Shown here: piece after piece, positions 1 through 6,000 of the stretch | Layout: every line of letters starts with the position of its first letter | How positions within the stretch are numbered: the first letter of the stretch is position 1 | Source of the DNA: a virus | Taxonomy: Duplodnaviria > Heunggongvirae > Uroviricota > Caudoviricetes | Length of the DNA: 8,639 nucleotides | Virus record (IMG/VR): IMGVR_UViG_2703719349_000003 | Span: 1-8,639 of that record | Reading direction: 5' to 3' (one strand) | Program-made: the position numbers

Positions 1-3000
1 GTGTTCAGGCCCACCCCACCAGGAGGACCCGCAAAATGATAATGGTTATCATTTGTAATGTAGTCCGGTTTCTTCCACCATCGCACCGGACCAGCGACTA
101 TGAGGGGACAACGCCGCGCTCCGTTAACGCGGTAAACCCCGGTGTGTATCGTTTTTGATTATCCCCGCACACTCGCGCAGAGGAGTCTCCCTGTCGGGCT
201 GCGGTCTCTGTTAATGCAGGAATACGGCGACGATACGGCGCATAGTTATGTCAGGCTGAAATGCCTTTATCAAATCCGGGTAACGCAATCTGCCCCTGCT
301 GCTCCAGCCTGTCCAGCCTTGCCAGCAACTGAGGCTTCTTCACCCTGCCCCAGCGATTGAGCAAGCGACCTGACATACTGGCGACATCTTTCTCTTTCAT
401 GTATTCCAGCATGACTGCATTTCTCTCAGCTTCCAGGTGTGTTTTTCCCTGCATGATAAGTTCTGCCATCCAGTTGAAAGCCTGGATGTACGTAACCTTT
501 ATTTGCATCGCAGTCTTACCAGTAAACCCCATAACGACCAGCATGTAACCGTCTTTCGTCATGTTAAACATTGGCTGGACATCACCATTTTTATCAATAA
601 AATCAGTAGGCTCAAAATTGAGCCGGGCAAAATCATCAGGACATTCAGAAATGGTTTGCCTGATCTTTCTTAATACGTTCTTATGACTCTTACCAAAAAA
701 TTCCGCCACTTTAATACTCGTGGTCAGGACAGAGCCTCCCACTACCATAACCATGTCACGAAAATCAATGCCGTTAACAACGGTAGAATATTTCATAGCG
801 TGTACCTGCTCTTTGAAATGAACCTTTGCCGCACAGGAAACCAGCCCACCGAGGCTCGCCAGCACTAACTGGTATCCTCAAAGGCTCATTCCAAAGGGGC
901 AGGTTCGGTGGTTATCATGCGCTGCGGTGCGCGGTGAAATTCAGATATGAAAAAGCCAGCGATTAAGCAGGCTCTGTTAATTCAGGCACTGAGTGCGGAT
1001 ATATTCCTGAAGCGTTCTCAATGCGGCCTGATCGCTGATGATTCCGTCTCTGATACCGAGAACGTTTCGTCCAGCAACTGGAGAGAGTTCGACGGAGGCA
1101 TCATTGCCCACGCCGGAGGTGGTGGGGGCTTCACGCACGGAGCCTGGACAGGTGGCGTTGATCCGCAGGCGCTTACGACCAGCGGCAACATCAGCACGCA
1201 GAGTTTCATTTTCAGCTCTCGCATCGGCTAATTCCCTCGAGTATTTTGCATCGAGCGCAGCAACATCGCGCTGGCGCACCTGCATATCAGTAATGGTTGC
1301 GTTTGCCAGCTCCAGCTCTCTGGCTTTTTTATCGCGCTGCGCTTTGTAGGTGATGGCGTTATCACGGTAATGATTCAGCCCCAGACTAAGCGCACCACAG
1401 GCCACCAGCAGGGCAATGATGACCACACACAGAACGCGGTTCATTTCACCACCAGCGTATCTGACCGATGAAATAACCGGAGACCATAATCACAAACACC
1501 AGCCAGATAAGAATGAACTTCCAGGTAGATAATTTTTCAGCCATCACTCAAATCTCCCGAATCAGTTTGCTAAAATCAAACACACTTTCTCCTTTGACTT
1601 TTCCGGAGTCAGGAAACACAAAACCCCACCTGCTGCTAACAAACGGGGTTTTTACTTTTATTCACTGAGGTTTTGCCAGTTCGCAGGATTTCGTGTTATC
1701 CGTCCGCGTTGGCCAACGTCATTTTTCAGCAAAATATTCTGCTTATCTGTCGATACCCCAGCACGCCAGCGCGCTCTCCTGGTCACGACGGGATACCTGA
1801 CCATAGCAATTATTTGAGCGGATACGGCAGTCTCTGCCACCGTCCTTAATCCACCAGCGAATCGCTTCACACGCTCCCCTGCGATCGCCTGCATTAATTC
1901 GTTTATAAAACGTCGACGGGAAACACTTACCGGGGCCAATGTTATACGGGCAGAATGACGCGATCCCCGCTTTCTGGGGTTCAGTCAGTGGCACTTTGAT
2001 GTTTTTCTCCACCCATGCCAGCGCCTTATCACGCTCAATGGCGTTAACCCGGTCGCATTTCCCCTTCGACAGCTTCATGCCAGGAATAACAGGCTTACCA
2101 TCCACCCGGGTGGCTCCACGGCAGATGGTCCAGATACCCGCGCCATCACGGTATGCCGTGGTGTGGTTACCTTCTTTTTCATCCAGAAACTGGTCGAGAA
2201 TATCAGGCGCAGGCGCCCCTGCGGCAATCAGCGCCAGAACGGCAGCCGACAGGCCGTATTTGATTTTGGTGTTCATGGATATTTATCAGGATTTATCGGT
2301 TCCGAATCCCTGGATATGTTAAGCCTTCACCCCACCAGTGGTGGGCACTGGCGGGTTCTTAATTTCCCCGGATGATCGTGGATTACATTCCACCAGGAGA
2401 TTACTTATGCTTATCTATCCAGCGGCAGACCTCCGTTTACAGGGACGCAGAGCACAACCATGGGATAAAACAACCACTCATAAATATCGTCCCGGTCAAT
2501 ATTATGACTTTCGTAAACACCCGGAACTGATCGAGACACACCTTGAGGATTTTGTTGAATATTCAGACAGACAAGCGATTCAGACCTTTTTTTCTTTTGT
2601 TAAGTGGATCAACAGCAATTCATCTGCATTCGAGAGCACGGACTGCATGTTTTCAGGAACACCAAAGGTTGATGAATACGCCCCGGTATTTGGTTGCACC
2701 CATGCGTCATCTGGCCGCTTCGAATTTTTGTTTCGCGATACGAAAATAAACCAAAATGAGCGAGCTGTCGGATGGGTACTTAACAAACTATCGCTCTACC
2801 TTCAGAAAGAACGGCCCGATTTTTGTAAAGGAACCTTTGGCATCGTTCCCCTCATGACGGAATATACCGACTCCGGCGGTAACGAGTTCACCGGTTATCG
2901 TATTTGTGTCTATTTCGATGCTTACGGGAATGGAACAGAGGATACCTGGACTTCTCTCAACATCATGTTTGATGGCCTCATGAAAGCCACCAAAAGAATG

Positions 3001-6000
3001 AGCAATGAAACAATCACTGGCGAGATGCGTCCCCTTTAAAAAATTATCCAGAATCTCACTATTTGCAGAGCGCTCTCTGTTTTTTTGAATACGGAAACAC
3101 TCTGCGAGATTTCTGCTCATCACTTTCCGGCAATAATCGTCAAACGCAGCAAACTGCTCATCGCGGCGTTTGTTTGCATCTTCAGAAGGCATCAGCGCCG
3201 ACAGTTTTTTATTCAGTTCAGCAATTTCATTTTCCAGACGACTGAAGCGCTGATTCATTTCTTCATGGTTCATCACCTACTCTCCCCGTGCCGCCTTACG
3301 CCGGTCTTCTCTGATTTTGAAATACAGGTTCGTCAGATATGTCAGCAGACCAAACAGCAGACTCCCCAGCACGCCTATTGCCGCCCACTGAGACGGGGAA
3401 ACCCTGTCCAGCAACTGCAGGAACCAGTAGCCCGTTCCCACCGCTGACGTGGTGTATGACACACCTGTTGTGATTTTTTCCATCTGGTACATACCCCGTC
3501 TCCCGCAATCCGGAAGCTCACAACAATAAAAAAGACCACCGGCACACACCGATGGTCCCTGACGCATGCTTACATCATCATGTCGCTGTCAGGTGTGGGG
3601 TCACCGCTATCTGAAGCACTCCCCTCACCCGCGATGCCTTCCGGCTCCGGAGCTGCCGGTGCGCCCAGCAGTTCATCCAGAATGGCATCCACTTCTGCAT
3701 CAAGACGCGCTTCCAGGTTATGGCGAAGTTTCTGTTTCAGTGCGCTCCGGACTTCTTCAGAGCGCAGGACTTCCTTCACTGCTTCAGCAGTGACCAGGGA
3801 TGTAATTTCTGACATGGGATTTTCTCGTCGAAAGATGTGATTAAGAAAGTTGCCGCTAAATGAGCGGCTCTTCGGGTTTGCTTCCGGCTGACTGACTGGC
3901 GCTGATTTTCTCAGCGGCCCTTTTGTCAATCTGTCTGCGCCAGAAGTCACGCATGGCCCGGTATCCGCCCGAAAGGAGATACAGCACACAGACCACCGTA
4001 CAGAAGTACAGCATTAACTGGTTCAGAAATGTCATAATTTCTTTCCGTTATTGTTGACAATAAGAACTGTTTTCATTTAAAAAATCAGAGCACGAAAGTA
4101 TCGTTCCTTTATTTTTTCTCCATGGGTATTACCACCGCCAGTGTCCATTCCTGTCGCTGGCGGCTTTTTTTATCATGCCGCAGTGTCCGCGTTGTTCACT
4201 TCCACCGTAATGCTGTCTATCAGTACCGGGTAAGTCGCACCTTTGGTAATGTCTGTCACATGCAGTTTATCCGCCGCAAAGGCACTGACCGGTGACTGCG
4301 TCAGCGTGAACGGTGTACCATCCTGACCATCAATAACCGGCGTCACCTGAAGGCTGTTATTTCCTGCAAAACGGAAAGCCAGCGTATGCCATTCGTTATC
4401 AAATGCGCCAAAGCTTCCCAGTTTCAGGTTGTTTGTCGCCACTTTCGCATTGTGGTACATCACATTCAGGTCTTTTGCATCCGTCTGGATGTAGAACGCT
4501 GCCAGCAGATTATTCCCTGCATCCCCTGTCAGGGTGACACCCTGCGGCAGAGAGGAAACCGGCCAGTAAAGTGCAATGACATACTGATTTGCTACCAGTT
4601 CACCGGATGCCTTAAAGCGGCAGCTGATTAAACCGCCATTTTTCAGCAGTTCAGCGCCAGTACCGGCATCATGCTCCAGATACCATGACCCCACTCCTGT
4701 CTCCTTGCTCAGCTTCATCGCGGTACCACCTGTTGCACCTTCATCGGCAACAATTTCCGCTTTACCTCCGCCAGCACTCCAGCCCTGTTCGGTCAGTCTC
4801 CCTTCAGACTCACTGGCACGGTAAGACAGCAGTGTTGTTGTGCTTACCGCTTCATTTTCTGACGGTGATGGCGTCGGTGCGCCAGTTTCAGAAGATGGAG
4901 CATCGACTTTTACTGTGGTTCGTCCCGCATGAATCAGAATCGCCGTTGCCAGACGGTCGGAAATAATCCCCCGGCGTGCCCAGGTGCTGAAATGGCTCGC
5001 CCTGTCCTGTGACGTCCAGGTGGCTGAGCTGTCACGCCATTTCGAACCGTAATATCCGATACCCGGAATGTCCGGGTCTTCTTCCGGTTTGTTCGTCGGC
5101 ACATTCACCCCGTTCTCATCCGTCATGAACGGTACGAAATGGATATTCTTTTCCGTTTTGTTTTTATAGCTGCCGTACACCGTCTGGTACGTGGATTCGT
5201 TCTTCTGCTTCCAGAAATACGTCGTGTCCCCGCATATCCAGGGAACACCGCCAGCAGAGCCACCAACGCACTGACCTGCCATATCCGTCAGGTCTGCACG
5301 GAATTTATCAACCAGCGCACCAAACTGTGCTGCGTGATTTCCGGGCGTGCCGTCAAAATCAAATTCCCCCTGCATCCACACCACGGTAAACAGCACATTT
5401 TTCGGGTTCTTCTTCAGTGCTGCTTTTGTTCGACCGATAAGGTCCTTATACAGCGGCTTGTCCACACCCCAGCGGGTTGAATTCTCCGAGGCACCACTCG
5501 CGTCACTGTATGTGCCATCAGCTCCGGTGGTGAACGCTGAACCACCACGGCAGCAAGGTACCAGAAGAATGCCCGCATTCGCCGGTATAAACGGCAGCAG
5601 TTTTTTGGCGATATGCAGTCCCTGCCCCACGGTTCCGTACTGCCCCTTTGACAGGTCCGCTTTCGGATGGTTAAGGCGGCTCATGTCCTGCACATCATGC
5701 AGACAATGGTCCGCCGGAATGATGTCGTTATACTTACAGGCGGCACCGCCCGGTGTCACCGTACTGCGGCGCGCCAGCTGCTTAATGCGCGGGTCCGGAC
5801 GGTCATATGTCTCCGGCAGCGGAAGGCCTTCACCATATGCCATGCTGTTTGACTGCCCCGCCAGAACCACAACAAAGTAATACTCCGGGTCTCTGGTGGC
5901 GCTGATTACTGTGCCTCCATCCGACGGCTTCACCACAACAGGTGTGCTCACATCACCTTCTGCGACAATCGCCTGAATAAGTGCTGCGCCATCATCCGTA

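Follow-up and report, generated by a model that had tools for sequence, protein, structure and literature searches.

A probable filled ydfR slot between the holin and endolysin genes of an Stx2a phage: an unrecognised cargo gene and a candidate reading frame antisense to it

We analysed a stretch of 8,639 nucleotides (nt) of phage DNA (positions 1 to 8,639 of IMG/VR record IMGVR_UViG_2703719349_000003), referred to here as the window, which is the late region of a Shiga toxin 2a (Stx2a) phage read on the minus strand, and focused our attention on the DNA between its holin gene S and its endolysin gene R. This 1-kb interval is probably the “ydfR slot” of a lambdoid Stx2a phage in its filled state, containing the stump of a ydfR gene, a cassette of low guanine-plus-cytosine content (GC) and an antisense reading frame, which we call frame B. 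The cassette holds a plus-strand gene of 210 codons, gene A, and frame B runs opposite its last third. Neither the slot itself nor the ydfR family, nor a layout of the moron type, is new. What is new here is that an annotated protein of 161 amino acids (aa) is demonstrated to be a chimera, that an unrecognised and widespread protein family is systematically missed in the annotation of Escherichia coli strains that produce Shiga toxin (STEC), and that comparison with relatives yields evidence for a putative antisense open reading frame (ORF) embedded in a mobile cargo cassette. The features of the interval and its two flanking genes are listed below.

1743 to 2276, minus strand: endolysin gene R, 177 aa, phage lysozyme (PF00959, E = 3e-24).
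2277 to 2353, no strand assigned: conserved segment upstream of R, of which 2277 to 2341 is the native ydfR-R spacer.
2354 to 3075, no strand assigned: imported cargo cassette, approximate limits, from alignment with phages carrying other cargo and from GC.
2395 to 2399, plus strand: Shine-Dalgarno (SD) sequence AGGAG, 7 nt before the ATG of gene A.
2407 to 3039, plus strand: gene A, 210 aa, the cargo gene, recognised by homologs, selection and fold.
2788 to 3060, minus strand: frame B, antisense of gene A codons 129-210 plus 7 codons beyond the gene A stop.
2788 to 3273, minus strand: composite ORF of 161 aa (the minus ORF), a ydfR-family stump joined to the antisense frame of gene A.
3065 to 3087, plus strand: hairpin followed by T7, 26 nt after the gene A stop, at the junction of cassette and ydfR.
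3076 to 3273, minus strand: coiled-coil module of the ydfR family, covering the minus ORF from residue 1 to about 66, from PHROG matches and alignment with PhiR5_1.
3144 to 3176, plus strand: degenerate relic of a terminator hairpin (-11.2 kcal/mol, z = -1.0).
3277 to 3492, minus strand: holin gene S, 71 aa, S21/P21 type (PF04971, E = 2e-32; annotated as holin in LC567824).

The holin S belongs to the P21 S holin family that characterises S21/P21 lysis cassettes (PF04971, E = 2.2e-32, 111 bits, cut-off 26), but the adjacency of S and R that also characterises them is absent, as 1,000 bp lie between the two genes in the window. In phage P13374, the ATG of R is found 4 nt from the stop codon of S (TAG at 3279-3277 in the window), and since S and R adjoin there, the extra DNA in the window is exactly 2277-3276, that is, 1,000 bases. 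The insert of about 1 kb that the initial annotation had described between S and R was therefore borne out to the base, and every sequence element that it had listed was found where it had been placed. Among 369 phage records with an S/R pair of this kind, 89 contain the 77-bp segment upstream of R that marks a filled slot and 280 (approximately three quarters) do not; the best-matching of these 280 have adjacent S and R. Four layouts were distinguished: S and R adjacent; S, a ydfR gene of 114 aa and R, as in BP-4795, a layout that we take to be shared by prophage Qin of K-12 (essQ-ydfR-rrrQ); S, a long ydfR gene, an opposite-strand gene of 86-104 aa and R, as in phage 86, Stx2_12E129 and PhiR5_1; and that of the window itself, with a ydfR stump and gene A. 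The S-R slot is, then, a known variable site, normally occupied by a ydfR/DUF1327 gene and often by a small opposite-strand gene as well. The mention of ydfR in Qin in the initial annotation had pointed to the right slot, but an insert at a place filled in 89 of 369 records is not novel; likewise, a convergent overlapping pair had not been known to be described, but PhiR5_1 carries an annotated convergent overlap of 53 bp between its ydfR gene and the opposite-strand gene. A literature search on ydfR, DUF1327 and lysis-cassette cargo returned nothing specific. The slot may represent a hotspot, a recurrent site of opposite-strand cargo.

The alignment of the S-to-R interval against other cassettes, which had been proposed from the outset, defined the boundaries of the insert. 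On the left, the sequence is shared with four phages carrying other cargo up to 2353 and diverges from 2354, where the cargo begins; the first 65 bp or so upstream of R, the ydfR-R spacer, are common to the window and BP-4795. On the right, the boundary lies between 3051, where DNA homology with Salmonella ends, and 3076. A GC-rich hairpin at 2331-2353 (minus-strand fold of -18.9 kcal/mol, z = -2.5) marks the exact point at which different cargo cassettes diverge; the shorter hairpin at 2331-2345 noted earlier is present, and a longer pairing, 2334-2352, folds better. The GC of the cassette is 0.41-0.47, compared to 0.52-0.55 in R and S. Morons are accessory genes of deviating composition located between genes that are adjacent in relatives (PMC3594210), and the cassette shows both the position and the deviating composition.

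Gene A, which starts with an ATG at 2407 and stops with a TAA at 3037-3039, is almost certainly a real and cargo-like gene. Its start is consistent with homologs beginning MLIYPA or MLVYPA, and full-length homologs of equal length, 53-65% identical, were found in Salmonella and in metagenomes. An exhaustive search (E <= 0.001) found at least 227 clusters of the family at 50% identity, nearly all of 200-215 aa, and 17 of 17 IMG/VR homologs with 50-56% identity are free of internal stops. Compared to four homologs, gene A has an excess of third-position differences in both halves (e.g., 25/14/43 at codon positions 1/2/3), with 16-24 codon changes synonymous in the sense frame against 6-8 synonymous in the antisense frame; judging from these differences, selection on gene A is clearly purifying. 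An AlphaFold model built on an alignment of 88 sequences has a predicted local distance difference test score (pLDDT) of 95.3 and a predicted template modelling score (pTM) of 0.91, with an alpha+beta fold of four long strands and three long helices, and inspection revealed neither signal peptide nor membrane segment. Gene A thus encodes a conserved, soluble, single-domain protein, and the claim that the plus-strand gene is genuine, independently organised, low in GC and of an unrecognised family is upheld by its homologs, selection, fold and GC.

Ten polar residues of the gene A protein are near-invariant (R15, E47, D48, N69, S73, E76, D79, R104, R110 and N115), which suggests a binding or catalytic site, here predicted from conservation; the C-terminal half has fewer residues that are invariant across the family. 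None of the 88 family members matched Pfam or PHROGs, and PADLOC gave just three stray matches among them (E about 0.008). A profile of the family found nothing under E = 0.6 among PDB sequences, fold searches with the model returned no informative neighbour, and two scans of GTDB genomes found no relatives. The idea that gene A might be a Tai homolog was considered and rejected. With a pLDDT of 95 and a conserved polar set, the family represents a tractable target for functional work.

The minus ORF has its ATG at 3273, 3 nt after the S stop, preceded by a GTG at 3276 and, upstream, by GGGGAGAG, and it ends with a stop at 2790-2788; from this arrangement, it is predicted to be translationally coupled to S. 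It is co-oriented with S, directly follows it and precedes R, a position held by the ydfR-family genes of BP-4795, phage 86 and PhiR5_1. Three PHROG families (phrog_36381, phrog_1085 and phrog_2091) match it, at residues 2-70 only, and this part can be aligned with the module that closes the DUF1327 protein of PhiR5_1, whose end falls opposite approximately residue 66. PF07041 (DUF1327) has no match in the minus ORF of the window; a sister allele of 263 aa from Stx1a phages does match it (E = 7.5e-34) and is treated by PGAP as a DUF1327 pseudogene without its C-terminus. From about residue 70 onwards, the minus ORF consists of reverse-complemented gene A sequence, with codon position 2 facing position 2, and its TAG stop is the complement of the CTA codon for Leu128 of gene A. 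The two frames overlap over 252 bp (2788-3039), and frame B is joined to the ydfR stump between about 3052 and 3075. No homolog of the tail was found outside the antisense strand of gene A, and the minus ORF is on its own no longer than chance, other antisense ORFs of 100-177 aa being present in the window opposite nanS-p, R, S and Rz. The minus ORF had been taken for one intact gene; this did not survive, as the DUF1327 domain and the native C-terminus are lacking and the last 90 or so residues are antisense to gene A. It is very probably a composite of a ydfR stump and an antisense frame.

We then asked what the antisense part of this composite represents. In relatives, frame B is an ORF by itself, about 89 aa long and running in the same direction as the late genes. 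The codons TTA, CTA and TCA, which read as stops on the opposite strand, were tallied in 16 distinct DNA sequences of gene A homologs: they account for 106 of 292 Leu and Ser codons in gene A codons 1-127 as compared to 4 of 221 in codons 129-210, while the frequency of A at the third position of other codons falls just from 0.34 to 0.23 between these parts. In six lineages whose proteins are 50-56% identical to that of the window, none of the 10-15 Leu/Ser codons of the last third is of the antisense-stop type, compared to 27-60% in the N-terminal part (hypergeometric p from 0.057 to 0.00013 per lineage, and 1.7e-8 for the six combined). Leu and Ser codons do turn over at columns 183-210, never to TTA, CTA or TCA, and frame B is thus open in diverged relatives beyond chance. 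Moreover, in six of six lineages frame B has an ATG located 5-7 codons beyond the complement of the gene A stop, with a clear SD-like motif 4-8 nt upstream of it in five of the six, even though the flanks are unrelated. In the window, no ATG, GTG or TTG is present at the equivalent position, so that frame B has no start of its own there.

A second line of comparison concerns synonymous change and the ratio of nonsynonymous (pN) to synonymous (pS) differences. At positions with an identical amino acid, the codon differs in 0.55-0.64 of the cases through codon 110 and in 0.26-0.29 at codons 131-160; for gene A as a whole, the synonymous difference is 0.587 in the N-terminal and 0.390 in the C-terminal part (column-permutation p = 0.0002), and the dip begins at the position of the frame B stop codon. 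In relatives, pN/pS of the antisense frame is approximately 0.5-1.0 in the overlap, compared to approximately 0.9-1.9 in the N-terminal control. The pN values are similar in both parts of gene A; the N-terminal pS is saturated, so that the relative ages of the two parts are not measurable. In addition, gene callers report a frame B product of 89-90 aa in Enterobacter and Yersinia, and one locus (L063, 5001-5306) has an intact B ORF of 90 aa, co-oriented with phage tail genes, next to a gene A cut to its last 98 codons. The frame B product matched nothing in Pfam and PHROGs; SPGILCSIPVSIEIDTNTITGELVTAGVGIFR is an example of a peptide unique to gene A or to the B tail.

On these comparative grounds, frame B is apparently more than a chance shadow, and we lean slightly towards its being a maintained, translated ORF in the relatives; that it is functional in this window is doubtful. 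Environmental homologs of gene A lack an open frame B and have antisense stops in the same third, and for this reason frame B, if real, would be confined to the enterobacterial prophage clade. The antisense overlap noted at the outset is, then, suggested by comparison to be maintained in relatives, but is weak in the window's own lineage; as to which of the two frames is under selection in 2788-3039, frame A dominates, and the signal of B (stop avoidance and synonymous dip) is seen in relatives. Should frame B be real, the cassette would be a mobile phage element with one gene per strand, and a testable case of antisense overprinting. Two further entries, P0008 and P0268 (each on an E. coli contig of 295,238 bp, probably the same one), resemble locus L063.

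A number of results weigh against the interpretation given here. In the lineage of the window, stop avoidance amounts to 0 of 10 against 5 of 16 Leu/Ser codons (p = 0.066), antisense pN/pS for pairs that include the window hardly differs from the control, the window, L006 and L009 show no synonymous dip among themselves, and three antisense stops are found in the Salmonella homolog L006 (codons 161, 191 and 194). Frame A dominates the substitutions across the whole overlap, where differences at B positions 1/2/3 are, e.g., 31/7/17, and where pN/pS is 0.2-0.5 for A and 0.5-0.84 for B. The antisense frame in which position 2 faces position 2 is the one known for long shadow ORFs. The 161-aa ORF, modelled by AlphaFold from its single sequence, has a pLDDT below 50 from residue 40 on, which is weak evidence, and homopolymer indels or other frameshifts disrupt the ydfR-B fusion in L026 and L040, 2 of 25 loci from E. 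coli; gene A itself is intact in 22 of 25 loci and frameshifted in 3. Distant gene A homologs stand in heterogeneous chromosomal contexts, and the gene A protein of the window matched nothing in Pfam, PHROGs, NCBIfam or PADLOC, including the defence profiles of PADLOC-DB 2.0.0. Moreover, a scan of both strands of 2150-3400 for sigma-70-like promoters found no site, although non-consensus promoters are possible. The hairpin with T7 at 3065-3087 is weak (-7.1 kcal/mol, z = -0.9), and no such terminator is conserved downstream of gene A homologs. Regarding the broken copies, the indels in L026 and L040 could be sequencing errors; the same is possible for L015, L044 and L045, in which gene A is frameshifted after about residue 62 to give a product of 113 aa (protein P0011).

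Many of these observations would also fit a simpler situation, which we regard as possible though not likely, in which gene A is the sole functional element, the antisense frame is open by composition or history, and the ydfR stump merely reads on to the first stop. The dominance of frame A, the marginal stop avoidance in the window lineage, the antisense stops in L006 and in environmental homologs, the long antisense ORFs opposite most real genes of the window, the absence of a Pfam or PHROG family for B and the low-pLDDT tail all point in this direction. A chance shadow ORF was in fact our first reading of the 250-bp overlap (by a first estimate, such a frame would be open by chance with P of about 0.2 under E. 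coli codon usage), and it was revised after the IMG/VR relatives had been analysed. What a shadow ORF does not account for is the stop avoidance in six lineages, with codons turning over at the very sites concerned, the positional conservation of the B ATG and SD-like motifs amid unrelated flanks, the synonymous dip that sets in at the B stop, and the persistence of B where gene A is truncated. The dip and the codon bias could instead reflect a nucleic-acid element (antisense RNA, RNA structure or a recombination hotspot) or a recently exchanged segment, which we hold to be improbable: the dip is indeed strongest over some 30 codons (131-160) and recovers partially afterwards, the saturated N-terminal pS hides the relative ages of the parts, and the C-terminal half of gene A has fewer invariant residues, but such an element predicts neither the avoidance of three antisense-stop codons while third-position A stays at 0.23, nor an in-frame B ATG with SD just outside gene A in relatives, and pN is similar in both parts.

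The remaining alternatives take the minus ORF for a gene in its own right. In one of them, which is very improbable, two intact and independent genes would tune lysis timing by antisense interference across their 250-bp convergent overlap; between S and R, any transcript of the plus strand would run antisense to the late mRNA, each ORF has a good SD motif, and many STEC genomes carry this cassette in their Stx1a and Stx2a phages. Nevertheless, the minus ORF is a stump with an antisense tail and not an intact family member, the cassette in other prophages stands between tail genes or lies upstream of the holin and hence is not tied to lysis, 280 of the 369 related records lack the filled-slot segment, and no promoter was found. 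In the other, the database annotation would be right and the plus ORF spurious, as DFAST and PGAP annotate the minus ORF only in Stx2_499 and RM9872-C1, and most complete genomes carry no plus-strand feature; this is practically excluded, being refuted by hundreds of plus-ORF homologs of the same length, by purifying selection, by a confident fold and by a minus tail that has no homolog beyond the antisense strand of gene A. We retain the filled ydfR slot, with a composite minus ORF and a candidate frame B, as the preferred reading.

The signals that had been assigned to gene A were examined as well. The proposed promoter, TTTATC (2292-2297) and TATGTT (2315-2320), agrees with the consensus at 7 of 12 positions by reading of the sequence, and 2292-2320 lies in the native ydfR-R spacer, also present in phages without cargo. 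In phage 86 and Stx2_12E129 (L003 and L005), a hairpin equivalent to that at 2331-2353 has a plus-strand TTTT(T) run after it, a terminator-like arrangement just upstream of the cargo gene; as the proposed promoter lies upstream of this hairpin, the site is disfavoured as a cargo promoter, and this part of the initial annotation was not supported. Of the terminator proposed for gene A, the hairpin and T7 are indeed present, but in addition to its weak folding it is not above chance, the terminator scan having found one site where 1.3 were expected. By comparison, PhiR5_1 (L004) has a hairpin at 1962-2006 with -19.6 kcal/mol and z = -5.2. Its strong intrinsic terminator on the plus strand (1970-2003 of L004) lies within the stretch coding for the ydfR motif KRRDEQFAAF and directly follows the opposite-strand gene of 86 aa; its counterpart in the window, at 3144-3176, is degenerate. 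This conserved ydfR motif may double as a cargo terminator.

Gene A has the traits of mobile cargo. At the DNA level, its similarity to relatives ends at the boundaries of the coding sequence, and in every prophage context examined gene A is antiparallel to the adjoining late genes. Four independent prophage contexts were found, namely the S-R slot, the interval between Q and the holin, tail genes I/J, and tape-measure-like genes. In a Salmonella P22-like prophage, the homolog is located between Q/Kiwa and the holin, and in approximately 15 IMG/VR prophages gene A separates tail gene I from tail gene J; its distant relatives stand alone on the chromosomes of environmental bacteria. No conserved partner gene was found across eleven genomic contexts of near and distant homologs. 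Of 5,426 complete E. coli genomes, 133 carry gene A, at 200 places altogether, and the copies are all at least 99% identical; carriers include O26, O111, O145 and O157 strains, and the cassette is present in both Stx1a and Stx2a phages. Most RefSeq records have no feature over gene A, and what RefSeq/PGAP and DFAST call in its place is either the 161-aa chimera on the antisense strand or a pseudogene of the DUF1327 type (L013 and L014). Through this annotation gap, surveys of the STEC pangenome, of virulence and of defence are blind to gene A. Two details of these contexts may be added: in locus L009 (9618-11257), the gene A homolog shares the Q-to-holin region with Kiwa (KwaA and KwaB), both on the strand opposite to the late genes, and prophages of the I-J type have a late-strand hairpin followed by T5-6 directly before the J-like ATG, at the A-proximal end of the cassette (L049, 5873-5890, minus strand; L060, 5843-5859, minus strand).

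Comparison with known systems places the locus between several of them. As in Qin (essQ-ydfR-rrrQ) and BP-4795 (S-YdfR-R), a ydfR/DUF1327 gene follows an S21-type holin and precedes the endolysin, with the same spacer of about 65 bp; unlike in these, the ydfR gene of the window has neither the DUF1327 domain nor its native end, and a cassette on the opposite strand stands before the spacer. Phage 86, Stx2_12E129 and PhiR5_1 share with the window a co-oriented ydfR gene that converges, upstream of R, on opposite-strand cargo bounded by the same hairpin, but their cargo proteins, which are hypothetical proteins of 104 aa and the 86-aa PhiR5_1 protein, are unrelated to gene A, they show short overlaps or none, and each ydfR gene retains its own end. 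The 86-aa protein, labelled DUF1823 in its record, had no Pfam match. Phage lambda bor is an accessory gene located within or beside the lysis region and pointing against the late operon. Gene A likewise runs against the late operon, an orientation which suggests expression in the lysogen; unlike bor and other morons, gene A has no identified promoter, a weak terminator, a cytoplasmic protein unrelated to Bor, and a candidate embedded antisense ORF.

An antisense pair divided between lysogenic and lytic phases has an experimental precedent in Pseudomonas phage Fc02, where olg1 and gene 10 overlap in antisense and both were shown to be expressed and to exclude phages (PMC9936078). Like that locus, the present one belongs to a temperate phage and would set a lysogen-expressed gene against an overlapping gene of the lytic operon; in Fc02, however, the locus concerned is the immunity region, and its proteins show no relationship to those of the window. 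By working analogy, gene A can also be compared to BstA with aba, a prophage defence gene with an embedded self-immunity element (PMC8585504), in that a cargo gene may hold an internal element that acts when the prophage goes lytic; however, aba is a DNA element and not an ORF, there is no relationship of sequence or family, and gene A lacks a PADLOC match.

A mechanism can be proposed along these lines. Gene A would be expressed in the lysogen from its own, still unmapped, promoter, as bor is in lambda; after induction, Q-antiterminated late transcription from pR' would run antisense through gene A and silence it, and the same late transcript would yield B, as a ydfR-B fusion here and as B alone in other prophages, so that gene A would belong to the lysogenic and B to the late phase. 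The orientation of gene A, its mobility among prophage cargo sites and its single co-location with Kiwa, in one Salmonella prophage and circumstantial, prompt the tentative guess that it gives a benefit in the lysogen phase, e.g., exclusion of, or defence against, other phages, though we would not put this at even odds or near it. It is a good deal less likely that A and B form a two-phase antisense pair in the full sense, in which an old family was recruited as lysogen cargo, its 3' third was overprinted by the late-strand B in enterobacterial prophages, B neutralises or complements A in lytic growth, and B was captured in Stx phages as a fusion to the ydfR coiled coil.

The remainder of the window agrees with its assignment to a Stx2a phage, positions 1700-3600 being 99.8% identical to Stx2a phage Stx2_499 (LC567824), and includes the following genes.

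1444 to 977, minus strand: Rz.
6116 to 4173, minus strand: nanS-p/yjhS esterase gene.
6897 to 6628, minus strand: stx2B.
7868 to 6909, minus strand: stx2A.

Regarding the lysis proteins, the N-terminus of S, MYQMEK, has Met codons three apart, a possible dual start (M1/M4), and that of R, MNTKIKYGLSAAVLALIAAGAPAP, is hydrophobic and resembles a signal-anchor-release (SAR) sequence, both by inspection only. An Rz1-like lipoprotein ORF (1018-1224) lies out of frame inside Rz (977-1444, minus strand), which is the usual spanin arrangement. Between stx2B and nanS-p, a full-length match to the Rfam small RNA STnc100 was found at 6339-6553 on the minus strand (162 bits, E = 2e-37), and just upstream of stx2A, at 7959-8210 on the same strand, tRNA genes of the Arg-tct, Arg-tcg and Met-cat types form the usual tRNA cluster of Stx phages.

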